DNA of 24,000 nt. Source: Streptacidiphilus sp. 4-A2 (GTDB taxonomy: Bacteria; Actinomycetota; Actinomycetes; Streptomycetales; Streptomycetaceae). The stretch is from NCBI GenBank assembly GCA_014284505.1, contig JAAFYY010000001.1, positions 5,233,845 through 5,257,844 on the forward strand. Direction: 5' to 3'. The position numbers and the translations under genes were made by a program. The number at the start of each line of letters is the position of its first letter. The stretch's first letter is position 1. Below are positions 3,040 through 23,547 of the stretch, piece by piece. The notes under the pieces were generated by a model. That model worked only from the letters and a program-made list of their open reading frames with translations, searched no databases and was not told where the DNA came from.

Positions 3040-3424
3040 ATGACCATCCCAGCTGCACCCCTGCCCCACCCCGGCTACCGCGCCGAATGCCGCTCCCTGA
3101 ACCCCACCACCGGCGAGCCCCCCGTACTGGTCGCCCTCCACAACACACCAACCCCGCCATGCGATCCGCTGGATCACCAACGGCCTCGGCATCGTCCTCT
3201 GCACCGTTGACCCCGACGATCACGAACAGGCCACCCACTGGATCGACAGCGATCAGGCCCAAGCTGCCGAAGCTCTGGCCAAGGGCCCGTCACCGTCACC
3301 ACGACCCACCCCTCCCCTCGAATGGACCGCCCGCCCAGTCCTCTTCCTGCCCCTACTCCACCACCCGACAAGCCGATCATCAGTTACCCTGTTCTGCGCC
3401 TTCACCAACCGGCGCTCGGAGTTC
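3040..3424 (+). CDS. hypothetical protein, frame-disrupted, 3' end interrupted by the IS
   Basis: ATG 3040 opens MTIPAAPLPHPGYRAECRSLNPTTGEPPVLVALHN. From ~3160 a second frame reads RWITNGLGIVLCTVDPDDHEQATHWIDSDQAQAAEALAKG. Both have high third-position G/C. The C-terminal part and exact end are unclear. No family recognised. Confidence 0.3.
3412..3424. repeat. 13-bp direct repeat flanking the IS (left copy, GCGCTCGGAGTTC)
   Basis: Identical to 5337-5349. It is separated from the left IS end by 2 nt (CA), whereas the right copy abuts the IS end directly. Confidence 0.8.
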
Positions 3425-3426
3425 CA

Positions 3427-5336
3427 TGTCGTTCTTCGGTTGATGCTTGACGGTTTGGTGTCGGTTGATGGTTGACGCGGGGCTAGGTTCCGTAGTCGAT
3501 ATGCCGCTGCGGCGGCGGCAACCTCCTGGATTTTTTGTGCGGGGGTGGGTGCCGAGGTCGGTGTCGCCGTCGGTGACGTGGAAGTGGGTGTCGTGGACGG
3601 TGACGGTGAGGACTTTGCCGCGGTGCGGTGCCGATCTGGAGTTTGCAGCCGGCGATGTGGAGGGTGCCTTGGCCGGAGACGACGCGGGTGAGTTGGAGGG
3701 TGGGTTCGGGCCGTGGGGGTGGTCCGGCCAGGCGTGCGCCGTGCAGGCGCTGCGGGCTGCGGGGGTCAGGGGGCTGGGCAGGGTGCGTCGGAGCTGGCCG
3801 TCGGTGACGACGTGGACGAGGCGTGCGTCGATCCGCAGCAGGATGCGGTGGCCGGCCAGGGGCATGCCGACGCTGAACTGGGTGCCGCCAGGGCGACGCA
3901 TCCGGCCCGGTTGACGGTGCGGTGGGCCTCGATGACGGCGTCCGGGGGCAGGGGGCCGGCGGGCAGGGCGTTGGAGGGTGCGGGTCGGGCGGGCGGGCGT
4001 CGTTTTGGTTGCGTAGGCGGGTGAGCTGGTGGGGTGAGGGGTAGGGGCGGGTTTTGAGGCGGCGGGTGCCGTCGAAGGCGTGCAGGGTGGTGCCGTCGAC
4101 CCAGATGGTGAGCTGGGTGGCGGCGCGGCGCGGCCCAGCCAGAGCTGTTGGCCCAGGACACCGAGGTTGCCGCTGGCCGGGACAGTGACGGTGAACTCGA
4201 CCGCTCCGGACGCCGGTTCGGGGGGCGGCGGGTCGCGGGGGCTGCGGACGGGGCGGGTGCGGGGTCAGGTCGGCGGGCAGCTTGAGCGGGACGGGTCCGC
4301 CTGGTCCGGTCGTCGGTGGTGGGGGTGGGGTGGAAGGCGGTGACGGGGTGGCCATGTTCAGGGCCTGGTGGGGCGGGTGGAGTTGTAGTCGGTGATCCAG
4401 GTATGGGCGGCGCCGGGCGGCCGGGTGGGGAAGGGGTCGTGGGCGGCGAGGAATTCCTCGCGGACGGTGCGGTGCCAGCGTTCGACTTTGCCGGTGGGGT
4501 GGGTGAGCGGACGGCGGTGTTGCGGGTGGTGATGCCGTTCTCGCGGCAGATGCGTTCGAACAGGACTTCGACGGGGCGGGGTCGGGTGAAGCGGCCGGTG
4601 AACTGTTTGCCGTTGTCGGTCAGGACTTCCTCGGGGATGCCGTGGCGGCGCAGGGCGGTGGCGAAGGCGGTGCACACGGCGCGGCCGCAGGCGCGGGGCA
4701 GCAGGTGGGCGACGACCGCGAAGCGGGAGTGGTCGTCGATGCCGGACAGGAGTTTGAGTTCGGTGTCGTCGGCGAGCATGACGCCGCCCATGAGGTCCAT
4801 CTGCCACAGCTGCATGGGTGCGTCGCGTTGCCAGCGGGTGTAGGAGGAGCGGGGCCGGCGGCGCTGGCCCGGGGTGATCAGGGTGTTGCGGACCAGGATG
4901 CGGTAGAGGGTGGCCTGCGAGGGGACTGGGGCGATGCCTTTGCGGCCGAGCTCGAAGGCCAGGCGGGCGGGTCCCCAGGCGGGGTGCTGGCGGCGCATCT
5001 CGCACACGGCGGCCTCGATGTCCGTGCCGGTGCGGTGCGGGCAGGCCCGGGGCCGGTGCGAGCGTTCGGCCAGGGCGGCCAGCCCTCCTTGCAGGTAGCG
5101 GTTCTTCCAGGTGTGCACGGTCTGCCGTGAGACGCCGTAGCGCGCGCGACGTCGGTCACCGGACAGCCGTTCTCGATCTCCATGACAGCGCGGTAGCGCT
5201 GTTCCATGATGCTCAACTCCACCAGTGCCAACAGGGCCTCCTGGTGATCATTGGCTGATCGTCAGAAGGCCATGCCGACGGACAGTGTCAAGCATCAACT
5301 GAAGCCGGAGTGTCAAGCATCAACCGAAGTAGGACA
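3427..5336 (-). mobile_element. IS481-family insertion sequence (~1.9 kb)
   Basis: The terminal inverted repeats are TGTCGTTCTTCGGTTGATGCTTGAC (3427-3451) and the reverse complement of GTCAAGCATCAACCGAAGTAGGACA (5312-5336). They match at 23/25 positions and have TGT...ACA ends. Subterminal repeated copies of the same motif occur at 3462-3477 and 5287-5304. A single DDE transposase gene lies inside, and 13-bp direct repeats flank the element. Confidence 0.85.
3483..5231 (-). pseudogene. IS481-family DDE transposase with C-terminal repeated SH3-like modules, frame-disrupted
   Basis: The N-terminal HTH reads LVELSIMEQRYRAVMEIENGCPVTDVA, then in another frame TVHTWKNRYLQGGLAALAERSHRP. The rve core reads LWQMDLMG...GIDDHSRF...LTDNGKQFTGRF...ERICRENGIT. 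In another frame it continues TGKVERWHRTVREEFL...WITDYNSTRP. The ORFs at 3483..4355 and 3380..3901 carry the C-terminal extension (LTIWVDGTTLHAFDG; ILLRIDARLVHVVTDGQLRRTLPSP; VLTVTVHDTHFHVTDGD). There are four or more frame changes. Confidence 0.8.
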
Positions 5337-5349
5337 GCGCTCGGAGTTC
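5337..5349. repeat. 13-bp direct repeat flanking the IS (right copy)
   Basis: GCGCTCGGAGTTC immediately follows the right IS end and is identical to 3412-3424. Confidence 0.8.
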
Positions 5350-5619
5350 AGTGAGTAACAACCTTCTCTACGGGTTCAAGACCCGTCGTCGCTGACGCTC
5401 CTCCGGGCGCGCGGCGCGTCCGACGCGCCGCCGCTCCTGTCTCCGCCCCGCTCCAGCGCGCCGCCCACCCCGCGCACCCAACTCCTCAGACGCATGCAGC
5501 GAGGGTTGCCCGAGGCTCCAACCACTGGTCAGAACAGTGCCTCCGGCGGGGGCGCTCCGGCTCCGGGATGGCCAAGGCCCGGCCGGCGAGTACCGGTTCG
5601 ATGTGGTTGAGGGGTGGGG

Positions 5620-5771
5620 GCTGCCATCCCGCCTGCCGTCGCCCCAGGCAAAGCCGAGCAGCCTTGGCCCCTGGTGTCCAGGTCGTTCGTCCAGCTGGGC
5701 ACTCCACCTGGACACCAGGGGGGCAAGCCCGCTCCACGTACGTGTGGGACGACGGCAGACGGGATGGCAGC
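5620..5771. other. 152-nt compound inverted repeat (nested hairpin) in non-coding DNA upstream of the RT gene; candidate structured RNA or DNA element
   Basis: The outer arms 5620-5641 (GCTGCCATCCCGCCTGCCGTCG) and 5750-5771 (CGACGGCAGACGGGATGGCAGC) pair over 22 bp with one C/A mismatch (5632/5759). That mismatch would be G-U on the minus-strand transcript. The inner arms 5668-5683 (CCCCTGGTGTCCAGGT) and 5706-5721 (ACCTGGACACCAGGGG) pair perfectly over 16 bp around a 22-nt loop. An extra CCCA/TGGG pairing occurs at 5643-5646/5745-5748. No convincing coding frame covers the region. Confidence 0.75.
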
Positions 5772-6029
5772 TGCGAGGAGTGTGGTGCCCGCCGGCCTTC
5801 AGTCGCTTGGCGGCGAAGCAAGTGATCCCTTCTGCACTCCGGGTCTCATCCTTGCTGTGTTGACGCCCCACGTACAGGGAGCCTTCGGGAAGGCGTAGCC
5901 GAGCGTTAGGCAATCGACCCGTCGTCTTAGTAGCGATCTGGCCAAAGTGCTTGAAACGCGAGCCAGTTGACGGAGACTATGTAGGTTCGGTGGAGGCCCA
6001 GCAACAGCGACGGCATCCGGGGAACCACC

Positions 6030-7061
6030 GTGGAACCGTCCACGCGGCAGTCGGATGCGGAGAATATGAATAACCAAGGCCCGTACCGTGAAGGCATTAG
6101 GAGCGCCTACTTCAAGACCATCACTAAGGCCAAATCAGCCGACGCGCCGGATATAATTCAGCACACGGATGTAAAGCTTAACTGGACCAGCTATCGAGAG
6201 CATCTTCTGCGATACCTGGAAAACCCAGAACCAAGGCCCGAATTCGTCGAACTGATCGAAAAGCCGAAAAATGATATTGCAGTTCGCCCCATAGCTCGAT
6301 TTGATATTCGGGATCGCCTCACCTATGAGACTCTCGTGTACTCAATTGCCGATGCTATAGATGGCCACGTATCTATGAATGTCTTCAGTTCGCCATGGAA
6401 AAGGCCGGGATTGGACTTCAGGAATCCAGTAAATTCCTGGCTTACTATGCACAAGCAAGGATATCGCATGCTTCGAAAGCATGCCAATTCTCAATTAGCG
6501 AGAACAGACATAGTATCGTTCTACGAGAATGTGGACACAGGAACCCTGCGTACTGACCTGGATACCGTTCATGCAGATCCTAGGATCGCAAATCAAATTT
6601 GTGCATTTCTGGATGGGTTCCAGCAAAGGGGGCAGGCTTGGGGCCTACCGCAGGGTTGCGACGCCTCGGGAATCCTCGCCAATCTTTACCTGTTGCCAAT
6701 AGACGAGCTGGTCGAACAACAAGGCGTCGGATATCTGCGTTACTCCGATGACATGCTGCTTATCGATGAAAGTTGGGAGGCATTGCGCAGCGCATTGCTA
6801 GAAATCAATCGCGGACTGCGTGGAAGGAGGATGTCAATGTCCTCAACCAAGACCAAGATATACGATCGAGATGGGTCGATAGAGCAGCTCGATAATACGA
6901 TCAAGGATGCGATTAGTTACGGTTTGCGGGCATCGCTCCCAGGCACCCTCGAAGCTCTATATGAGCTCATCGTCTCCGCAACCGAAGGAGATATCGTCAA
7001 TGACCGCGATATAAAGTTCTCCTTCGCAGGCTCGGCGATCGAGGTGATCCCAGGGCAATAG
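6030..7061 (+). CDS. reverse transcriptase (UG/Abi / defence-associated RT-like), RT domain
   Basis: The RT motifs occur in order: VRPIARFDIRDRLTYETLV, ARTDIVSFYENVD, GLPQGCDASGILANLYLLPIDE (from 6642), YLRYSDDMLLI (YSDD at 6741-6752) and STKTKIY. The likely true start is ATG 6066, behind GGAG (6058-6061). G+C is 29/60 at 6061-6120. The TAG at 6059-7061 reading frame (7059-7061) is probably reached only because of a 1-nt frame break near 7017-7022. Confidence 0.9.
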   Translation: MEPSTRQSDAENMNNQGPYREGIRSAYFKTITKAKSADAPDIIQHTDVKLNWTSYREHLLRYLENPEPRPEFVELIEKPKNDIAVRPIARFDIRDRLTYETLVYSIADAIDGHVSMNVFSSPWKRPGLDFRNPVNSWLTMHKQGYRMLRKHANSQLARTDIVSFYENVDTGTLRTDLDTVHADPRIANQICAFLDGFQQRGQAWGLPQGCDASGILANLYLLPIDELVEQQGVGYLRYSDDMLLIDESWEALRSALLEINRGLRGRRMSMSSTKTKIYDRDGSIEQLDNTIKDAISYGLRASLPGTLEALYELIVSATEGDIVNDRDIKFSFAGSAIEVIPGQ

Positions 7062-7078
7062 ACTGGGTACTCCGCAAC

Positions 7079-7549
7079 GTGGTTGACAACCAGCACCTTT
7101 CCGCAGATCTATTTGATTATCTTGAACATTTCCCTAGTAAATTGACGGACATTAAAGGAGCTATGGAAGACGCGCTTGATAGGACCTCACCGCCCAGGTA
7201 CCCGCATTTCACGCAGCGGATATATCAGTCTGCCATCAGACAGGGAATTAGCTCAAACCGCATCAAGCGGAGCGCGTGGGAAGTACTACGTGACAGAAAC
7301 ATCAACAGCCTTACGCGCGAATTTGCAGCTCGATATATCGGCAGACACGGAAAGGTCTCAGATGGACAGCTGCTCAAGGCTGAGTTTACACACGAGCCCC
7401 TCACATCGACACGCCGGGCCATTCTGATTGCAATGCACGAGAGAGAGCACATGCCGACTTCGCTTCTGCGGAGCCTCAGGACTCCAGCGTCTGCTCTTAG
7501 GTGGACCGCAGAATATCTCTACTACGCCACCGAAATTCCCAATCCCTAG
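7079..7549 (+). CDS. HEAT/alpha-repeat-like domain, probably the C-terminal part of the RT protein
   Basis: This frame is open from 7004 and reads (KV)LLRRLGDRGDPRAIDWVLRNVVDNQHLSADLFDYLEHF...SAWEVLRDRNINSLTREFAARYIGRHGKVSDGQLL...RRAILIAMHE. Lx(2)LGx(2)GD and AARxxG are HEAT-repeat-like signatures. Joining DRDIKF (frame 1) to LLRRLG (frame 2) needs a single missing base in TTCTCC. Confidence 0.7.
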   Translation: MVDNQHLSADLFDYLEHFPSKLTDIKGAMEDALDRTSPPRYPHFTQRIYQSAIRQGISSNRIKRSAWEVLRDRNINSLTREFAARYIGRHGKVSDGQLLKAEFTHEPLTSTRRAILIAMHEREHMPTSLLRSLRTPASALRWTAEYLYYATEIPNP

Positions 7550-7563
7550 GTAGGAGAAACTCC

Positions 7564-8052
7564 ATGATAAGGGTGGCCGTCTATTTTTGCTTGGCGGTAA
7601 GCCTAGCAGCCGCAAGCTTTTTCATCAAAAACCCGGTATGGTTCAATCTCGCGATCGGTGCATCCTCCGGTTTGAGCATCCCGTTTTTTGAGTCGATAGT
7701 CAATAACCTTACGGCAATTCGCTATATTTACTACTCGCTTAGATTCTATGGAGTTGATGTGCGCATATCAACCTCCTATTTGTTTCGAGTGAAGATTGAT
7801 GGCCGGTACCTCCTCATCCGAGGACGCAGGTTTCCGGATCAGTTCCAGCCGGTTGGCGGAGTTCATAAGGTCTCATTCTCCGGGCGTCAATTTCTCGCAG
7901 GCATCGGGGCGGTCGATGATGATCTCGTCCCGATCGACCAACATAGCGCCGATGACATGCGAATCCGCATCAAGGGGCGGTATCTGCTCTCCTTTTACAA
8001 CTGGTTCAAATCCCGTGAAGGCCGTGAAGATCACCGTGCGAGAGTTTCATGA
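7564..8052 (+). CDS. two-TM protein, N-terminal part of the RT-associated putative effector
   Basis: ATG 7564 lies 8 nt after AGGAG (7551-7555) and 14 nt after the RT/alpha-repeat stop. There are two hydrophobic helices, VAVYFCLAVSLAAASFFI and WFNLAIGASSGLSIPFF. These are followed by YLFRVKIDGRYLLIRGRRFPDQFQPVGGVHK, which resembles a Nudix beta-strand plus GG element. The stop at 8050-8052 lies inside a ~50-nt stretch that reads better in another frame. Confidence 0.75.
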   Translation: MIRVAVYFCLAVSLAAASFFIKNPVWFNLAIGASSGLSIPFFESIVNNLTAIRYIYYSLRFYGVDVRISTSYLFRVKIDGRYLLIRGRRFPDQFQPVGGVHKVSFSGRQFLAGIGAVDDDLVPIDQHSADDMRIRIKGRYLLSFYNWFKSREGREDHRARVS

Positions 8053-8082
8053 AGAGCTGATCGAATCCGGTATAGTTCGGGC

Positions 8083-8352
8083 GTGGAATTCCCTTTCACG
8101 ATGCAAGACTTCAAAGGCACTCTGTATGATCGGATTCGCGTGAGTCCACTAGCCAACATGAGGGAAATTCTCATAGCAGACATTTATGAGCTCTTGCCAA
8201 ATTCTGCGCAAGCGGAATCATTCAGGCAACTGATTCAGTCAGGAGTTCCTGAGATTATTTGGGTTACTGCCCAGGATATTCTCCAAGGGAGAATGCCTGC
8301 TGGCTCTCCTGCTGGAACGCATATCGCACCTCATGCCAAGAAGATTCTTTAA
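8083..8352 (+). CDS. C-terminal part of the same RT-associated protein (Nudix-like domain continuation)
   Basis: This ORF is in the same reading frame as 7564..8052. The intervening 8036-8085 reads TVREFHEELIESGIVR in the +1 frame, where REFHEE resembles the Nudix box RE-U-x-EE. Restoring one G in CGGGC (~8078) rejoins ...GIVRGVEFPFTMQDFKGTLYDRIRVSP.... Stop is TAA at 8350-8352. Confidence 0.65.
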   Translation: MEFPFTMQDFKGTLYDRIRVSPLANMREILIADIYELLPNSAQAESFRQLIQSGVPEIIWVTAQDILQGRMPAGSPAGTHIAPHAKKIL

Positions 8353-8459
8353 TTGGTGCCACAATGTCCGTTCACAGTCCCTTTCAGGCAACCCTCGCCG
8401 CAGACAGGGCTGTAGGTGGGAACTGCCAGGCGAACCGGTACGCACCTAAGCTCGGCTCC

Positions 8460-8800
8460 ATGATGCTGCGTAGGTCTCCGCCCGTGGTGCGCACCATCCG
8501 AATTGATCAATTGGGGCACGGCTCGGTCAGCGCGCTTCTGATCAGCGTCTGTCCCGGGCCGCACCTTTGCAGCGCCGTGCACACGTACCTCTTTATCGAT
8601 GGACTCGACTTGATCGCGCGCAGCTTCGACGGCGCGGCCGGCGGCTGTCCGAGTCAGCTTCTCAGGCCTGGGGGACTGCTCCACCCCACCGTTCAAGCCC
8701 GTACCGTGGATGTAGCCGCCCAGGACTCGGCCAACGGCTCCCCTGAGGTCTACGTCCAGGTCCGGCTCCGAGGTCAGACCGTCACTCGGTCATCACAAGA
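8460..8800 (+). CDS. hypothetical protein (end uncertain)
   Basis: ATGATG at 8460. The frame reads ...HTYLFIDGLDLIARSFDGAAGGCPSQLLRPGGLLHPTVQARTVDVAAQDSANGSPEVYVQVRLRGQTVT, with clearly G/C-enriched third positions over 8580-8770. The ORF stays open to 9068, but the sequence there looks less protein-like. No family recognised. Confidence 0.3.
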
Positions 8801-9133
8801 TCGAGCGGGGCTACTCGAGATGGGGCAAGAACGAGTCAGCTGCGCAGAACCGGGCCTCGTGCCCCTTGCGTGCCCCAACGGGCGGAGGCGAGCGGTAAAT
8901 CACGGTGAGACTGAGGTCTGTCAGCCCAGCAGCTCGCCCGTCCCGAGCGGGGCGAAAAGGCAGGTCAAGGCCGGTTTTGCATACTCACAGAGGCAGTGCT
9001 TCCCAAGCTCAGAGCGCGAGTTCGATTCTCTTCAGACCTCCAGGACCTGCCCTGTGGTGGTGGGGTAGACGGCCCTTTCCGCACCCCGGGTCCCGTCTTT
9101 TCCCGTGCGGACGACCCCACCACTCGCAGGATG

Positions 9134-9610
9134 TTAGTGGTCGGACCGGGTGACTTCGCCGAGATGCGGGCTATGCCACGGCGAGGACTCCTCGCTGGGG
9201 CGGCTGGCCGCAGGGCGCGGCCTGAGGGCCTCCTCGGCTATCTCCTCGGGAGAAAGACGGCTGATCTTCTCGCCTGCTTCGGTCTCGACCAGGGTCAATG
9301 CGCCGATCCAGTCCCCGTCGGGGTACTCCCAGCTGGCGGGCTCCTCAAGAATCGCCGGAAGCTGAGCGCGAGGCACCAGCTCGCCGTCCTGGATGCCATC
9401 TCTCCCGGAAGGGGAGGTCCACGGCGCGACCCGGCGGACCTCGATCCACCCGCGATCGATGAGACCGAGCAAGATCCCCGCTCGCTGACCGGCCGGGAGT
9501 AATCGTCATCGTCGAGGTCGGCCAAGACCCCGGCAGGATGTCCCCCTCCAGGAGTTGAGGAAGAAGGCTAGCTCGGCCTTGGTCAGCGCGTCCCACACTT
9601 GCTTGCTCAC
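9134..9610 (-). CDS. hypothetical protein, frame-disrupted near its N-terminus
   Basis: The 112-aa ORF 9134..9472 reads LIDRGWIEVRRVAPWTSPSGRDGIQDGELVPRAQLPAILEEPASWEYPDGDWIGALTLVETEAGEKISRLSPEEI and has very high third-position G/C. Upstream pieces in other frames (VSKQVWDALTKAELAFFLNSW from GTG 9610; LADLDDDDYSRPVSERG) suggest a ~155-aa protein. No family recognised. Confidence 0.5.
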
Positions 9611-9931
9611 CCGGCAATCGTCGCAGAGACAGGCCTCCTACACAGCTGGCAGAATCGTCAACTCGAACCTGACCGCACAGCCGGGGTGAGCCCGGGCAGC
9701 GTGAGAAGCGTCACCTAAGGTTGGGGGCCATCGGCCGGCGGTCCGCTGGATCGCTGCCGCGTCGCGAGCGTTCGCAAGGGCAGGGTTCACGTCATCTGGC
9801 GCCAGGGACGGCGTGCCACAGGCGTGCCAGGTTGGGCGGGAAGCGGCGGGGATTCGCGGGGAACAGCGGCGTGAGCGGGGCTCCGGCGCAGGTCAGGGGA
9901 TTGGCTGGTCAGCACGGATCCGGGGGCGGAC

Positions 9932-10026
9932 TCTTCCAAACTAGCTACGCGGGTTCGATTCCCGTCGCCCGCTCCACACGACCCGGCCCCAGCTCAGCGA
10001 CCTGATCGCAGAGCCGGGGCCGGTCT
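9932..10026 (+). repeat. 95-bp direct repeat, right copy (attR-like: partial tRNA-Gly 3' end plus terminator)
   Basis: Identical to 565-659. Positions 9932-9976 equal the 3' 45 nt of tRNA-Gly, but the 5' half is absent (preceded by CGGGGGCGGAC), so this is not a functional tRNA. The hairpin copy is followed by TCTGCGTTTT. Confidence 0.9.
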
Positions 10027-10156: not shown

Positions 10157-10516
10157 ATGGGTTCGGGGAGCGCCGTCATGGCGACTGAGAAGCGGGTACC
10201 GCAGGTGAACGACGACCGGCTGTGCTGGTTGGCCGTACGCGAGGAGCTGGGGAAGAAGTCGCGCAAGCCGGGCCTGGTCGGGGTGTTCAGCCTGCTGGGC
10301 GGAGCGCGTGGCGGGCACGGCGGGACGCGGTTGGGCGGGGACATGCGGCGGGAGGGGTCGTCGGACCGGATGGGCGACTACGCACTGGCCGTGGACGCGG
10401 CCTCCGGGACGCTCTCGGCCGAGGAGCGCAAGCATCTGCGGGCCACCGGCGAGGTGCCGGAGTGGTTCCTGGCCGAGGTGGAGCGCCGGGCCACGGTCAT
10501 CAAGAAGCAGCGCTGA
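10157..10516 (+). CDS. hypothetical protein
   Basis: 119-aa ORF with almost uniformly G/C third positions, ending ...HLRATGEVPEWFLAEVERRATVIKKQR. The start may be the internal ATG at 10178 (MATEKRV). Confidence 0.7.
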   Translation: MGSGSAVMATEKRVPQVNDDRLCWLAVREELGKKSRKPGLVGVFSLLGGARGGHGGTRLGGDMRREGSSDRMGDYALAVDAASGTLSAEERKHLRATGEVPEWFLAEVERRATVIKKQR

Positions 10517-10558
10517 CAAAAAGCATTGGCTGACAAGAAGGCATTGAGGGGCGGGACG

Positions 10559-10953
10559 ATGGAGCTGGTACAGATCCGACTGGTGGTCCAGGACTTCGGG
10601 GCGTGCTTCCGGTTCTACCGGGACGTGCTGGGGCTGGAACCGCAGGTGGACGACGACACGGGCCCGTACGGCAAGTTCAGCCTGCCCGGGGGCGGGGCGG
10701 CGATCGCCCTCCAGGCCCGCGAGCACCTCGCGACGGACGCCCCCTGGCTGGGCGGGCCCGGCAGCGGGGACCGTGCGCTGATCGTGCTGAAGGTGGACGA
10801 TCTGGACGCCGTCGGCTCGGAGCTGCACGCGCGGGCGCGCGCTGGGAGACCGAGCCGCGGACCCAGTGGGAGCGGCTGCGGGTGGCCTACCTGCGCGATC
10901 CCGAGGGAAACCTGGTCGAGTTCCAGCAGTGGCTGGCGCCCCGGGCGGACTGA
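10559..10953 (+). CDS. VOC-family (glyoxalase/bleomycin-resistance-like) protein, one frame break
   Basis: Reads MELVQIRLVVQDFGACFRFYRDVLGLEP...ALIVLKVDDLDAVGSELHAR, then after a frame change near 10835 continues GARWETEPRTQWERLRVAYLRDPEGNLVEFQQW. This is the typical VOC beta-alpha-beta-beta-beta pattern. Confidence 0.7.
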
Positions 10954-11038
10954 ACGAATCGAACGCCGGTACGCTCGTGCCGCCCACGGTTCACCCTTCA
11001 CGCATCAGCGGAGCCGCACAGTGCGCCCCACGCGGCGA

Positions 11039-11806
11039 ATGCAGGTGATCCAGCACAGCATCGTCCGGGAGATGGCCTGCCTCGGGCGCGAGTTCGAGAT
11101 CGACGGCAGCGTGGTGCGCGGCCCGGGGACGACCGCCGTGGCGGTCCGCGAGCACGCCGACGACACCGGCGGGCATGTGGACCTCGGCTATGTGCTGCGG
11201 CTGGGCGACGGGGCGGGCCCGGTGGTCTGGGACTGCACCGCCGGCCTCGGCCGCACCGAGGAGGAACGGCTGACCAACGCGGTGCGGATGTGGCGGACCA
11301 CGACCGCCTCGGCGATGGTGGAGCTGCTGGAGCGGCGCGGCGTGCACGGGGACCACTTCGCCCCCGGGGCGGCGGGCGGGGTCCCGGGCTGGCACACGGT
11401 CCAGGGTCCGGCCTGCGTGTTCGGCTTCGAGAGCGGGCCGCTGGGCGACTGGGTCGCCGGGCAGCTGCTGCTGCCGACGGTGACCGCGCAGGTGCTGCCC
11501 CGGCTGCGGGAGCCGATGGTCAACGGGGTGCGCTTCTTCTTCGGCGGCCGCAGCGGGGACGAGGTCGCCGAAGTGCGGGTGAACGGGGAACCCGCACCCG
11601 ACGCCTCGGCGGCGCTGCGGGCGCTGCCCTGGCCCAGGGGCGAGCGGCTGGCCTGGGCCCGGTGCTTCATCCTGCTGGTCGCCGACCCCGCGGCACTGGC
11701 CGGGGTCGAGGCGCCGGCCGGGGTCGAGGGGCGGTCCCGGCAGGCCCGCGGGCAGACGGCGGCCGGAGCGGGCGCAAGGCTGCTCCGGCGATGGCTCCGG
11801 CCCTGA
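11039..11806 (+). CDS. hypothetical protein
   Basis: Continuous frame from ATG 11039 (alternative GTG 11021) with near-total G/C at third positions. Reads MQVIQHSIVREMACLGREFEIDGSVVRGPG...WHTVQGPACVFGFESGPLGDWVAGQLLLPTV.... No family assigned with confidence. Confidence 0.65.
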   Translation: MQVIQHSIVREMACLGREFEIDGSVVRGPGTTAVAVREHADDTGGHVDLGYVLRLGDGAGPVVWDCTAGLGRTEEERLTNAVRMWRTTTASAMVELLERRGVHGDHFAPGAAGGVPGWHTVQGPACVFGFESGPLGDWVAGQLLLPTVTAQVLPRLREPMVNGVRFFFGGRSGDEVAEVRVNGEPAPDASAALRALPWPRGERLAWARCFILLVADPAALAGVEAPAGVEGRSRQARGQTAAGAGARLLRRWLRP

Positions 11807-17249: not shown

Positions 17250-17428
17250 CCGGCCAGTCCATTCCCGGCCCGGCGCACCGGGTCGCGGAACGGGCGCGGA
17301 TCTGGCCGGTTCGGCCCGGTGGGCGGGTCGGCGGCCCGTGAAAGGATGCCCGGGAACCAGACAGCTCGCGGTTCGACGTCCGGGTCCCTACATCTGCCGG
17401 ACGACACCGAACGATAGGGAGAAGCGCA

Positions 17429-20031
17429 GTGCCCGGGACCAATCTCACCCGCGACGAAGCCCGAGCGGGCCCGCATCCTCAGCGTGGACGCCTACGAGGT
17501 CCGGCTCGACCTCCGCTCGGCCGTCCGGCCGATCGCCGACGGCGACGGCGCGGGCCGGTTCGGCTCGCAGACGCTGCTGCGCTTCCGCTGCTCGGAGCCG
17601 GACGCGGACAGCTTCGCGGACCTGCTCGCCCCGGCGGTCACCCGGGTGGTGCTGAACGGCCGGGAGCTGGATCCGGCCGTGGTGTTCGACGGCTCGCGGA
17701 TCGCCCTGCCGGGGCTGGCCGAGAACAACGAACTGCTGGTCGAGGCCGAGTGCGCGTACAGCCGAACGGGTGAGGGCCTGCACCGCTTCACCGACCCGGT
17801 GGACGGCGAGACCTACCTCTACACCCAGTACGAGCCGGCCGACGCGCGCCGGGTGTTCACCACCTTCGAGCAGCCCGACCTGAAGGCCCCCTACAGCTTC
17901 ACGGTCACCGCGCCCGCGCACTGGGCGGTGTTCTCCAACTCCCCGGCCGGCGGCGACCCGGTCGCCGAGGGCTCCGCGCTGACCTGGAGCTTCGCCCCGA
18001 CGCCGCGCATCTCCAGCTACATCACCGCGGTCGTGGCCGGCCCGTACCACGTGGCCCGCGACCACTACAGCCGGGTGCTGGAGGACGGCCGCCGCTGGAG
18101 ATCCCGCTGGGCGCGAATGTGCCGGGCCTCGCTCGCGCAGCACTTCGACTCGGACGAGATCTTCACCGTCACCAAGCCAGGCCTGGACTTCTTCCACCAG
18201 GAGTTCGACTACCCCTACCCCTTCGGCAAGTACGACCAGGCCTTCGTGCCCGAGTACAAATCGGCGCGATGGAGAACCCGGGCCTGGTCACCTTCCGCGA
18301 GGAGTACGTCTACCGCTCCAAGGTGACCGAGGCCGCCTACGAGGGCCGGGCCAATGTGATCCTGCACGAGATGGCGCACATGTGGTTCGGCGACCTGGTC
18401 ACCATGCAGTGGTGGGACGACCTGTGGCTCAAGGAGTCCTTCGCCGACTTCATGGGCGCCTACTCGCAGGTCGCGGCGACCAAGTACAGCGCCGGGTGGA
18501 TCACCTTCGCCAACCGCCGCAAGGCCTGGGCCTACCGGCAGGACCAGCTGCCGACGACGCATCCGATCACCGCGGACATCCGCGACCTGGAGGACGCGAA
18601 GCTGAACTTCGACGGCATCACCTATGCCAAGGGCGCGGCCGTGCTCAAGCAGCTGGTGGCGTACGCCGGGAGTGAGGCGTTCTTCGAGGGCGCGCGGCGG
18701 TACTTCAAGCGCCACGCGTTCGGCAACACCACCCTCGCGGACCTGCTGGCGGTGCTCGCCGAGACCTCCGGACGCGGCGCCGAGGCCATGGCCGAGTGGT
18801 CCCGCGCCTGGCTGGAGACGGCCGGGGTGAATGTGCTGAGCCCGGAGGTGGTGACCGACGCCGAGGGCCGGATCACCTCGTTCGCGGTGCTCCAGGAGGC
18901 CACCGCCGAGTACCCGGTGCTGCGGCCGCACCGGATCGCGGTCGGACTGTACGACCGCGACGAGGAGGGGCTGCTGGTCCGCAGCCACAAGTCGAGCTGG
19001 ATGTCGCCGCCGAGGCCCGGACCGAGGTGCCGGAGCTGATCGGGCGCCCGCGCCCGGCGCTGGTACTGGTCAACGACGAGGACCTGACCTACTGCAAGGT
19101 CCGCTTCGACGAGGCCTCGCTGGCCACGCTCCGGGAGAGCCTCGGCGACCTGGCCGACCCGCTGGCCCGGGCGCTGGCCTGGTCCGCGCTGTGGAACCTG
19201 ACCCGCGACGGCCTGGTGCCCGCCCGCGACTACCTGGACCTGGTGCTGCGCTTCGCCGGACGCGAGAGCAACATCGGCGTGCTCCAGTCGCTGCACCAGC
19301 AGGCCAAGTCGGCGCTGGACATGTATGTCGCGCCCGAGCGGCGCGACGAGTGGGCCGCCAGGCTCGCCGAGGGCACGCTGGCCGAGCTCCGCGCGGCCGC
19401 CCCCGGCGGCGACCACCAGCTCGCCTGGGCGCGCTTCCTGGCGCAGACCGCGACCTCGGCGGCCGACCTGCAGCTGGTGTCCGGGCTGCTCGCCGGGACG
19501 GCCCGGATCGACGGGCTGGCGGTGGACCAGGAACTGCGCTGGTCCCTGCTGCACGCGCTGGCGGCGGGCGGCGCGGCCGACCAGCGGCAGCTCGACGCGG
19601 AGCTGGAGCGGGACGACACCGCCAGCGGCAAGCGGCAGCTGACCGAGGCCCGGGCCTCGCTGCCGACCGCGGAGGCCAAGGCCGAGACCTGGCGGCTGGT
19701 GGTGGACTCGAACGAGCTGCCCAACGCGCTGGTGGAGGCCCGGATCGCGGGTTTCCAGCAGGCCGGGCAGCGGGAGCTGGTCGCGCCCTACGCCGAGAGC
19801 TACTTCGAGGTGCTGGAGAAGATCTGGGCGGAGCGCTCGATCGAGATCTCCATCCGGATCGTCAGCGGGCTCTTCCCGCGCCTGGTGACCACCACGCAGA
19901 CGCTGGAGCGCACCGACGCCTGGCTGGCCGAGCACGAGGACGCGGCCCCGGCGCTGCGGCGGCTGGTGCTGGAGTGCCGCGACGACCTGGCCCGCGCCCT
20001 GCGCGCCCAGGCCCGGGACGCGGCCTCCTGA
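17429..20031 (+). pseudogene. pepN: aminopeptidase N (M1 family), paralog 1, multiply frame-disrupted
   Basis: GTG 17429 opens PGTNLTRDEA. The GAMENPG exopeptidase motif lies at ~18265. The zinc site reads HEMAHMWFGDLVTMQWWDDLWLKESFA. The C-terminal ERAP1-like helical domain runs to 20031. It is colinear with the paralog at 20951. Frame changes occur near 17470, 18090/18112 (compensated), 18257 and 18995. Confidence 0.85.
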
Positions 20032-20784: not shown

Positions 20785-20950
20785 GGGACGACCATAGACC
20801 GACCGGCTGGTGGGGGGTGGGCGACGCCGCTCCCCACCGGCCGGCCGGTCCTCGCGCCCTGGCCCCTCCGCTGCCAGCGGCTCGGCCAGGCGTGCGACGT
20901 GGGAGGATGCCGGATAGCTGAGAGAGACACTGACGAAGGAGTCACGCAGC

Positions 20951-23547
20951 GTGCCTGGCACCAACCTGACCCGTGAGGAGGCCCATACCCGGGCGACCCT
21001 CCTCACCGTGGACGCATACGCAATCGAGCTCGACCTGAGCAACGCCGCCGAGGGCGGGACCTTCAGGTCCAGCACCGTGGTCCGTTTCACCGCCTCCACC
21101 CCCGGCGCGTCCACTTTCATCGACCTGGTCGCACCCACCGTGCACGAGGTCGTGCTGAACGGCACGGCACTGGACCCGGCCGAGGTCTTCGCCGACAGCC
21201 GGATCGCGCTGCCCTCGCTCGCCGCGGAGAACGAGCTGCGCGTCGTCGCCGACTGCGCCTACAGCAACACCGGCGAAGGTCTGCACCGCTTCGTCGACCC
21301 GGTCGACGAGCAGACCTACCTGTACACCCAGTTCGAGGTCCCGGACGCCCGCCGGGTGTTCGCGTCCTTCGAACAGCCCGACCTCAAGGGCACCTTCGCC
21401 TTCACCGTGACGGCCCCGGCCGGGTGGAAGGTGATCAGCAACGAGGTCTCGCCCGAGCCCCAGCAGGGCACGGTCGCGGGCACCGAGGTGCACCGGTTCC
21501 CGGTGACGCCGCGGATCTCCACCTACATCACCGCGCTGATCGCCGGACCGTACACCGGCGTCTTCGACGAGTACACCGACCCGGCGGACGGCCGGCGGGT
21601 GCCGCTCGGCATCTACTGCCGCCCCTCGCTGGCGCAGCACCTGGACGCCGACGCCCTGTTCGAGGTGACCAAGCAGGGGTTCGACTACTTCCAGGAGAAG
21701 TTCGCCACCCGCTACCCGTTCAGCAAGTACGACCAGCTGTTCGTGCCCGAGTTCAACGCGGGCGCGATGGAGAACGCGGGCGCGGTCACCATCCGCGACC
21801 AGTACGTCTTCCGCTCCAAGGTCACCGACGCCGCGTACGAGGTGCGCGCCGAGACGGTGCTGCACGAGCTGGCGCACATGTGGTTCGGTGACCTGGTCAC
21901 CATGGAGTGGTGGAACGACCTCTGGCTGAACGAGTCGTTCGCGACGTTCACCAGCATCCTCTGCCAGGCCGACTCGCCCGGCACCCGCTGGCCGCAGGCG
22001 TGGACCACCTTCGCCAACTCCATGAAGACCTGGGCCTACCGGCAGGACCAGCTGCCGTCCACGCACCCGATCATGGCGGAGATCAACGACCTGGAGGACG
22101 TCCAGGTCAACTTCGACGGCATCACCTACGCCAAGGGCGCCTCGGTGCTCAAGCAGCTGGTGGCGTACGTCGGCCAGGACGCCTTCTTCGCGGGCGTGCA
22201 GACCTACATGAAGCGCCACGCCTGGGGGAACACCCGGCTCGCCGACCTGCTCGGCGCGCTGGAGGAGACCTCCGGACGCGACCTCAAGGCCTGGTCCACG
22301 GCCTGGCTGGAGACCGCCGGGATCAACGTGCTGCGCCCGGAGCTGGAGGTCGACGCCGACGGCGTGCTGACCTCGCTGACGGTCCGCCAGGAGGCCCCGG
22401 CGCTGCCGGCCGGCGCCAAGGGCGAGGCCGTGCTGCGCCCGCACCGGATCGCCATCGGCCTGTACGACCTGGACGCGAGCGGCGCGCTGGTGCGCACCGA
22501 CCGGATCGAGCTGGACGTCGACGGCGAGCTCACCGCGGTGCCGCTGCCGGCGGGCCGCAAGCGCCCGGCGGTGGTGCTGCTCAACGACGACGACCTGTCG
22601 TACGCCAAGGTCCGGCTCGACCCGGAGTCGCTGGCCGCGGTCACCGCGCACATCGCCGACTTCACCGACTCGCTGCCGCGCGCCCTGTGCTGGGCCTCCG
22701 CCTGGGACATGACCCGCGACGGCGAGATGGCCGCCCGGGACTACCTGTCGCTGGTGCTCAGCGGCGTCGGCCGGGAGTCGGACATCGGCGTGGTCCAGTC
22801 GCTTCAGCGCCAGGTCCAGCTGGCCGTTGACCTGTACGCGGACCCGCAGTGGCGGGCCGAGGGCCTGTCCCAGCTGGCCGACGCCGCCCTGGAGCAGCTG
22901 CGTGCCGCCGCCCCGGCAGCGACCAGCAGCTGGCCTGGGCCCGCACGTTCGCGGACTCGGCGACCGGCGAGGAGCAGCTCGCGCTGCTCAGCGGGCTGCT
23001 CGACGGCAGCCGCACGTTCGAGGGCCTGGCCGTGGACACCGAGCTGCGCTGGGTGCTGCTGGAGCGGCTGGCGGGGACCGGGGTCGCGGACGAGGACGCG
23101 ATCGCGGCCGAGCTGGCGCGCGACAACACCGCCGCCGGGCAGCAGCACGCGGCGGCCTGCCGCACGGCCCGGCCCACGGTCGAGGCCAAGGCAGCCGCCT
23201 GGGCCGCGGTCGTGGAGCAGGAGACGCTGACCAACACCGTCCAGCAGGCGGTCATCTCCGGCTGGTACCAGCCGGAGCAGCGGGAACTGCTCGCCCCGTG
23301 GACGGCGAAGTACTTCGCCGCGGTCAAGGGGATCTTCGAGGAGCGCTCGCACGAGATGGGGCAGCAGATCATCGTCGGCCTCTACCCGTCGTACCAGGTC
23401 TCGCAGGAGACCCTGGACGCCACGGATGCCTGGCTGGCCTCCGCCGAACCGGCCCCGGCGCTGCGGCGCATGGTCGTCGAGGCGCGCTCCGGCGTGGAGC
23501 GGGCGCTGCGCGCCCAGGCCGCCGACCGGGCCGCCGCCCAGGGCTGA
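20951..23547 (+). CDS. pepN: aminopeptidase N (M1 family), paralog 2, single frame break
   Basis: GTG 20951 opens PGTNLTREEA. Motifs present are GAMENAG and HELAHMWFGDLVTMEWWNDLWLNESFA. The frame is continuous for 759 aa, then changes at ~22915 (GCCCCGGC, probably one C short). It continues ...DQQLAWARTFADSATGEEQLALLSGLLDG... to the stop at 23547. Confidence 0.9.

Follow-up and report, generated by a model that had tools for sequence, protein, structure and literature searches.

A catalogued UG23 reverse transcriptase and 2TM-NUDIX gene pair, probably intact behind assembly errors, in Streptacidiphilus sp. 4-A2

The 24,000-nucleotide stretch of DNA analysed here (the window) lies on the 8.77-Mb chromosome of Streptacidiphilus sp. 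4-A2 and carries at 6066-8352, adjoining an IS481-like insertion sequence (IS) element, a cassette of two genes, one for a reverse transcriptase (RT), the other for a protein with two transmembrane (2TM) helices and a NUDIX domain. The cassette is an unexceptional representative of the two-gene UG23 plus 2TM-NUDIX system already catalogued, a 'DRT' (defence-associated reverse transcriptase) candidate of the class 1 UG/Abi type. Its pairing has been on record since 2022 as that of a candidate anti-phage system, so the type of system is not new. As an overall explanation of the results we favor, on balance, a UG23 plus 2TM-NUDIX pair whose reading frames were broken by assembly and which would act by abortive infection via its membrane helices.

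The first-pass annotation had presented the two genes as a candidate for an unrecognised UG/Abi-type system with a novel RT-Nudix pairing. Its call of the architecture was right and its claim of novelty wrong, because the pairing is covered both by Mestre et al. 2022 (PMC9226505), who published it, and by PADLOC-DB v2, which holds dedicated RT_UG23 and RTasNUDIX models matching both genes. The RT does, in substance, cluster with a known type that has the same partner, an outcome that the first-pass annotation had itself named as refuting its claim, with the qualification that UG23 is catalogued rather than experimentally characterised. Our literature search found no later or experimental paper dealing with UG23 or RT-associated Sa_NUDIX proteins, and NCBIfam has no model for the NUDIX partner, which is what can be said for regarding the system as unrecognised; with the pairing published, and the dedicated PADLOC models matched at E 1e-53 to 1e-114, that reading is scarcely tenable. 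As a discovery the locus is of little weight, the pairing being published and standard defence-annotation tools carrying models that detect it.

Results

The reverse transcriptase gene

The features of the RT gene and its leader are as follows.

5900-6065, + strand: low-GC leader, presumed promoter and 5' untranslated region (G+C drops from ~70% to 56-60% at 5900)
6066-7549, + strand: UG23 reverse transcriptase, class 1 UG/Abi (PADLOC RT_UG23; tblastn with the intact homologue P0002)
6264-6863, + strand: RT fingers/palm core (RVT_1, PF00078) with catalytic YSDD at 6741-6752
6897-7546, + strand: C-terminal alpha-helical repeat (alphaRep/HEAT-like) domain (AlphaFold2 model of P0002 and its fold matches)

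In the assembly the RT occupies frame 3 as far as 7061 and frame 2 from 7004 on; it is 494 residues long after a one-base repair at 7022. The two frames match the PADLOC-DB profile RT_UG23 with E 3.9e-114 (profile positions 8-315) and 2.8e-54 (312-488), so that 8-488 of its 489 positions are covered; the frames are two halves of one UG23 RT. The runner-up models were UG32 (4e-47), UG21 (1e-44) and Drt8 (1e-31), with UG32, UG21, UG22 and Drt8 all at least 60 orders of magnitude weaker than UG23. The closest intact homologue, P0002 (517 residues, 70% identical), which is encoded on the metagenome contig L081, matches RT_UG23 at 3.7e-177. The open reading frame (ORF) 6030-7061 (343 residues) reads the RT motifs VRPIARFDIRDRLTYETLV, TDIVSFYENVD and GLPQGCDASGILANLYLLPIDE and, at 6741-6752, the catalytic YSDD (tac tcc gat gac), all as first annotated; its residues 79-278 match Pfam RVT_1 (PF00078) with E 1.9e-15. 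The adjoining frame, open over 7004-7549, likewise reads the HEAT-like segments LLRRLGDRGDPRAIDWVL ... REFAARYIGRHG. The Pfam HEAT_2 match of the RT C terminus is weak (E 0.067), and PF13646 is precomputed on some homologues.

The AlphaFold model of P0002 (predicted local distance difference test score, pLDDT, 87.9) consists of an RT core together with stacked helix pairs at residues 301-510 (pLDDT >90), with the first 23 residues disordered. In a fold comparison the model matches, over its full length, DRT4/UG15 (5e-11), DRT6 (template modelling, TM, score 0.62/0.64), AbiK (TM 0.61) and Abi-P2, whereas by sequence solved structures match the RT core only; no UG23 structure exists. The RT_UG23 match and the predicted fold together uphold the assignment to class 1 UG/Abi RTs with a C-terminal alpha-helical repeat. 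Two other RT types were considered and rejected: a retron RT, the best NCBIfam retron match being 2e-10 versus 1e-114 for UG23, and a group II intron, for which there is no Rfam intron match in 5000-10000, TIGR04416 reaches 59.8 bits against a cut-off of 300 and the C terminus is alphaRep rather than maturase.

ATG 6066 is a likelier start than GTG 6030, because the homologue alignments begin at 6066 and the additional N-terminal residues of P0002 are modelled as disordered; its likely ribosome-binding site is GGAG at 6057-6060. The + strand of the leader showed no sigma-70-like site, and neither promoter nor terminator scans exceeded the counts obtained with shuffled sequence. In streptomycetes TTA is a rare, bldA-dependent codon. 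The RT gene has a single TTA (Leu, 6495-6497) and the partner gene none, which may be incidental in a gene of 50% G+C.

The 2TM-NUDIX partner gene

The second gene follows on the same strand.

7552-7556, + strand: AGGAG, ribosome-binding site of the partner, in the 14-nucleotide gap after the RT stop codon TAG 7547-7549
7564-8352, + strand: 2TM plus SMODS-associated NUDIX protein (RTasNUDIX, Cap16-like; Pfam PF18167, PADLOC RTasNUDIX)
7567-7704, + strand: two N-terminal transmembrane helices, residues 2-21 and 24-47 (hydropathy, AlphaFold2 helices, 2TM effector profiles)
8039-8059, + strand: REFHEEL, core (REUxEE) of a Nudix box that is shortened; legible in the assembly in frame 2 only

The junction of the two genes, including ATG 7564, is as the first-pass annotation gave it. 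After three missing bases are restored, the partner is 263 residues long. It matches PF18167 (Sa_NUDIX) with E 2e-33 (profile positions 2-95) and 2.6e-15 (112-199), and PADLOC RTasNUDIX in pieces with E 9.6e-53 and 9e-20, with weaker matches to '2TM effector' models of CBASS (anti-phage signalling systems that work through cyclic oligonucleotides). Together with the Nudix fold described below, the PF18167 matches bear out its description as a 2TM protein with a SMODS-associated NUDIX domain. Of the two hydrophobic N-terminal helices, the first is evident from hydropathy, being strongly hydrophobic (Kyte-Doolittle 19-residue mean 1.9-2.0, up to 1.99), and the second is predicted in the AlphaFold2 model of a 74% identical homologue, in which the helices span residues 2-18 and 24-47; the PADLOC 2TM effector profiles align from residue 1-6.

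That homologue, P0082 (263 residues), is the partner in the closest intact pair, on L081. Its AlphaFold model, built with 52 homologues, has a pLDDT of 93.7 and places an alpha/beta domain after two N-terminal helices. A sequence-level search of the Protein Data Bank (PDB) found no relative of the partner, and the best Foldseek PDB matches of the model are all Nudix hydrolases (NUDT12, YfaO, NudI, NudC, YmfB and Ap4A hydrolase), at probabilities of 0.9-1.0, E values as low as 1.6e-4 and TM scores of 0.45-0.52 as normalised to the small targets. The Nudix-like stretches noted earlier, the GG strand and REFHEEL included, are present, RYLLIRGRRFPDQFQPVGGV in frame 1 and REFHEELIESGIV in frame 2. 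Residues R154, E155, R160, E161, E164 and E165 are invariant in the 52 homologues. The canonical Nudix box GX5EX7REUXEEXGU is absent as such: only the REFHEE core and the upstream RE are invariant, the first Glu and RE are 4 rather than 7 residues apart, and the trailing G-U is displaced.

Broken reading frames

Neither gene is open from end to end in the assembly. The lesions were placed by tblastn with intact homologues and by DNA alignment with L081 (64% nucleotide identity).

7021-7023, + strand: lesion 1, one base missing (ttctc-cttcgc), frame 3 to 2 (tblastn junction; 1-nucleotide gap at 7021 versus L081)
8033-8038, + strand: lesion 2, two bases missing (gatcacc--gtgcga; homologues E-D-S-P-W-R), frame 1 to 2 (tblastn; 2-nucleotide gap at 8035 versus L081)
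8076-8085, + strand: lesion 3, one base missing, frame 2 to 1 (1-nucleotide gap at 8076 versus L081)

These four missing bases are the only gaps within the coding sequences relative to L081, and there are no in-frame stops besides the effects of the indels. Two breaks, at about 8035 and 8080, interrupt the Nudix gene. Its pieces 7564-8052 and 8083-8352 share a frame and only the short Nudix-box stretch REFHEELIESGIV, between the two partner lesions, falls in the shifted one; the TGA at 8050-8052 arises because the frame shifts at lesion 2. Past lesion 3 the repaired reading, ...GIVRAVEFPFTMQDF, matches the family. The repaired RT (from ATG 6066) keeps 52/53 invariant family columns and the repaired partner 24/24.

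Other genes of the window are broken in a like manner. In the two paralogues of aminopeptidase N the Pfam domains run on seamlessly across frames: PepN-1 (17418-20031) has M1_N, M1 and ERAP1_C in three frames, with switches near 17463, 18263 and 18990, and PepN-2 (20918-23547) switches near 22913. A GntR/HutC regulator with a UTRA domain (1275-2048, - strand; 77% identical to its orthologue on locus L011) uses all three frames within ~250 nucleotides of its helix-turn-helix region, yet ends in frame, and at least two frames are needed to read the IS481-like transposase. Nearly all frame-breaking events across the window are missing bases.

We consider it very probable that the broken frames are indel errors of the assembly and that the real genes are intact, because two PepN genes, the GntR regulator and the transposase are broken likewise and the invariant residues of the cassette proteins are kept. 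Were the frameshifts at 7022, ~8035 and ~8080 real, the cassette would be a decaying, dead pseudogene pair in this strain, as might be thought from three frame-breaking sites within 2.3 kb, from the adjoining IS481-like element, itself broken, and from the NCBI annotation of the locus, which has only truncated products of 343 and 162 residues. Decay is nevertheless improbable: similar lesions in two PepN genes and the GntR regulator would be implausible biology for a free-living actinomycete, and relative to the intact pair on L081 the cassette has no in-frame stops or other gaps and retains its invariant residues. The truncated NCBI gene models are thus probably artefacts of an indel-rich assembly.

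As a separate observation, the glyoxalase plus DUF6348 ORF at 10517-11806 (+ strand) is preceded in the same frame by an open stretch of 127 codons (from 10133), closed by a stop at 10514-10516; this may be a further fault of assembly or annotation.

Co-occurrence of RT and partner across Actinobacteria

A scan with the RT alignment, at one genome per species, yielded 80 loci, 67 of them actinobacterial UG23 loci; one of the latter is a contig-end fragment and was left out of the partner count, leaving 66 evaluable. In 26/66 a NUDIX gene stands directly downstream, co-directional with the RT and separated from it by a short spacer. These 26 comprise all loci with an RT at least 40% identical to P0002, and all are from Streptomyces or Kitasatospora. 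The other 40/66 have, directly downstream, a 2TM protein of 160-180 residues (SLATT); PADLOC RTasSLATT is matched by three representatives (1e-47 to 1e-73), whose RTs, too, are RT_UG23. The two partners are mutually exclusive, never occurring together in any of the 66 evaluable loci, in agreement with the report of Mestre et al. 2022 (PMC9226505) that SLATT takes the place of 2TM-NUDIX in UG23 members without NUDIX. This split (26 versus 40 loci) offers a natural effector-swap experiment.

The predicted co-occurrence of the two genes is strict, and their synteny is conserved in 26 further genomes and on one metagenome contig, L081, which bears the closest intact RT-NUDIX pair. All-against-all clustering of ORFs showed RT and partner to be the sole genes common to all 28 NUDIX-type loci, and a third conserved gene was therefore rejected. 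An apparent cluster of GntR regulators at 15 loci consists mostly of paralogues; true GntR orthologues (77-85% identity) occur near the cassette only in loci L008, L010 and L011 and in the window. Those of L008, L010 and L011 (84-85% to L011) are 1.7-2.5 kb away from the UG23 cassette, a hint that some lineages share an insertion neighborhood.

A conserved non-coding RNA upstream of the RT was sought and rejected: the upstream regions of 12 UG23 loci align with 29% mean identity and no conserved block, and an Rfam scan of 5000-10000 gave no match. This result fits an RNA-independent, untemplated enzyme.

Discussion

Relation to known systems

The catalogued UG23 plus 2TM-NUDIX system (PMC9226505) has the same RT family, the same HEAT-like C terminus, the same partner architecture and the same gene order, strand and tight spacing as the cassette; there is no difference of substance, this copy being 70% (RT) and 74% (partner) identical to the nearest intact pair and lacking approximately four bases in the assembly. 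Mestre et al. 2022 (PMC9226505) describe the C termini of UG23 RTs as HEAT-like and the partner as two N-terminal transmembrane helices plus a C-terminal NUDIX domain ('cluster 350'), a known CBASS effector. The partner has the same architecture and belongs to the same family (Sa_NUDIX, PF18167) as Cap16 (PADLOC PDLC00667, 693 and 675), P0082 scoring 229 bits on a CBASS 2TM effector model versus 294 bits on RTasNUDIX. The cassette differs from CBASS in having an RT directly upstream of the partner, where CBASS has a cGAS/DncV-like nucleotidyltransferase (CD-NTase). No CD-NTase (SMODS) cyclase was found in the window by PADLOC on the flanking ORFs, and none is common to the 28 NUDIX-type loci; a cyclic oligonucleotide of CD-NTase origin is thus an unlikely activating ligand.

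With respect to the RT, the nearest comparisons are with DRT4 (UG15), DRT6 (UG12), AbiK and Abi-P2, with which the predicted UG23 fold agrees over the whole length, RT core plus helical repeat (TM 0.5-0.64), and for which untemplated, protein-primed single-stranded DNA and abortive infection are known, as they are inferred for UG23. These systems differ from UG23 in sequence (13-16% identity) and in being single genes with no separate effector, their DNA itself or a fused domain being thought to be toxic. In UG23 no conserved priming tyrosine was identifiable. AbiA (RT plus HEPN or RT plus SLATT) likewise combines a class 1 RT with a SLATT-exchangeable effector module (PMC9226505), but belongs to another RT group, has a HEPN nuclease fused in AbiA-large and gives a weaker fold match (8oz7, TM 0.36-0.40). 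Retrons with 2TM effectors (e.g. of the Ec48 type) resemble the UG23 pair in joining an RT to a membrane effector, and the logic by which an RT product controls a toxin is possibly the same; they differ in their msr/msd RNA, which the UG23 locus lacks, as indicated by the Rfam scan and the unconserved upstream sequence.

Proposed mechanism and alternatives

Untemplated, protein-primed DNA synthesis has been described for AbiK and Abi-P2 (PMC9508834), AbiA (PMC11077055), DRT3b (PMC13174585) and DRT4, whose product a phage DNA-binding protein guards against a host exonuclease (PMC12783706). By analogy, the UG23 RT would make untemplated, protein-primed single-stranded DNA without a dedicated non-coding RNA, like AbiK, Abi-P2, DRT4 and DRT6. 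Phage infection would alter the amount or state of this RT-made DNA, as with DRT4, and the membrane partner would then be activated and would kill or arrest the cell; we infer, in short, abortive infection in which the DNA product of the RT activates a membrane effector. The partner would most likely kill via its two transmembrane helices, by membrane disruption, because UG23 always has a separate 2TM protein and NUDIX interchanges with SLATT, which is devoid of such a domain; moreover, the CBASS relative Cap16 is reported in a review to retain its toxicity after mutation of its NUDIX domain (PMC10419184). The Nudix-like domain would be a sensor or regulatory module, binding, and perhaps processing, the RT product or a nucleotide.

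Several points weigh against the explanation that we favor. The loop that matches the one bearing Tyr125 of DRT4 has no invariant tyrosine in UG23 and is flexible and of low confidence in the model; a priming tyrosine assigned by analogy with Tyr125 was accordingly rejected, and protein priming is not assignable in UG23. The invariance of the REUxEE glutamates in the 52 partner homologues suggests a catalytic Nudix domain and not a mere sensor. The statement that Cap16 remains toxic with its NUDIX domain mutated comes from a review (PMC10419184), not from a primary paper. Mestre et al. 2022 (PMC9226505) rated the defence-island association of UG23 as 'inconclusive', and UG23 was outside the groups that they assayed. 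PADLOC found no other defence gene among 10 ORFs flanking the cassette, although the indels make ORF calls here unreliable.

The strongest alternative, though in our view clearly the less likely account, is that the Nudix domain is the toxic enzyme and that the helices only tether it to the membrane, with the domain depleting or cleaving an essential nucleotide (NAD-like, deoxynucleoside triphosphates or capped species) or processing protein-linked DNA. The invariant residues, which include the metal-binding REUxEE core, would be expected of such an enzyme, all fold matches are active pyrophosphohydrolases (e.g. NUDT12, NudC, NudI and YfaO), and the protein is placed among 'hydrolases' by Mestre et al. 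2022 (PMC9226505). Set against this are the use by the sister clade of SLATT, which has no enzyme domain, the shortened Nudix box and the reported persistence of Cap16 toxicity after NUDIX mutation (PMC10419184). Far less probable is a role other than phage defence, the cassette serving as an addiction or toxin-antitoxin-like module, or in competition among mobile DNAs, with the RT product restraining a membrane toxin. The inconclusive defence-island score (PMC9226505), the IS and integrase genes that adjoin the cassette here and on L081, its persistently low G+C in all hosts and the want of neighboring defence genes in the PADLOC search would all suit such a module. Yet every class 1 UG/Abi relative so far characterised serves in phage defence, NUDIX and SLATT, the partner families, belong to the CBASS-type effectors, and a retron-like antitoxin logic would still be compatible with defence.

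Within the favored explanation of a UG23 plus 2TM-NUDIX defence pair, one extension is speculative and rather unlikely, namely that the UG23 RT replaces the CBASS cyclase, an untemplated polymer or a short released product being the ligand for the Nudix-like domain of a Cap16-type effector. If true, this would be RT-driven, CBASS-like signalling, outside the known modes of DRT action (toxic DNA product, de novo gene, accumulation of double-stranded DNA). A repaired Streptacidiphilus or Streptomyces copy would be an entry point to how a class 1 untemplated polymerase communicates with a separate membrane effector.

Base composition and genomic surroundings

The cassette falls in a low-GC block (~5900-8400) of ~50% G+C, against ~70% in its flanks and 73% in the core genes at 10-24 kb; the counts given in the first-pass annotation (29/60, 31/60 and 46/60) were reproduced exactly. 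Its description of the cassette as compositionally foreign holds relative to this host, but low G+C characterises the gene family. The cassettes of UG23 have 50-54% G+C in all 26 NUDIX-type loci and 50-61% in the 13 SLATT-type loci measured, with flanks of 56-76%, and their proteins have diverged to ~35-50% identity. Low G+C is thus a persistent trait of the UG23 family and not a sign of recent arrival in one strain. A G+C of 50-54% across actinomycetes of ~70% could reflect selection, for example xenogeneic silencing until the genes are needed, besides recent transfer.

The cassette lies between the IS481-like element (3380-5231, - strand) and ~1.7 kb of non-descript sequence. The transposase of this element has HTH_32 and rve domains in 3766-5118 and similarity to the Mu transposase C terminus in 3380-3901; a tandem 25-nucleotide direct repeat (AGTGTCAAGCATCAAC...) at 5284-5333 adjoins it and may mark the end of the element. 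That the cassette might be a composite transposon, or might be delimited by terminal inverted repeats, was considered and rejected: the flanking pairs of inverted repeats, 5495/8384 and 5585/8431, do not exceed chance (E 0.07) and are not mirrored in order, and no second copy of the IS lies on the right-hand side of the cassette. On L081 a gene of the phage integrase family (4274-4972, - strand) lies ~1.5 kb downstream of the RT-NUDIX pair, which fits carriage on mobile DNA.

Between the IS element and the leader, the sequence 5617-5774 forms a hairpin, a 152-nucleotide near-perfect GC-rich palindrome (minimum free energy -113 kcal/mol, z = -7.7) that is unique in the window. It was rejected as a part of the system, being absent upstream of 15 other UG23 loci and, as a sequence, from all 81 fetched loci; candidates for its nature are an element like a miniature inverted-repeat transposable element, a terminator or other.

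At the left edge of the window are tRNA-Pro(TGG) (244-320, - strand) and tRNA-Gly(TCC) (536-609, + strand). The sequence from ~610 to ~10000, which holds the cassette and IS remnants and whose coding signal is irregular, is a possible genomic island beside these tRNA genes.

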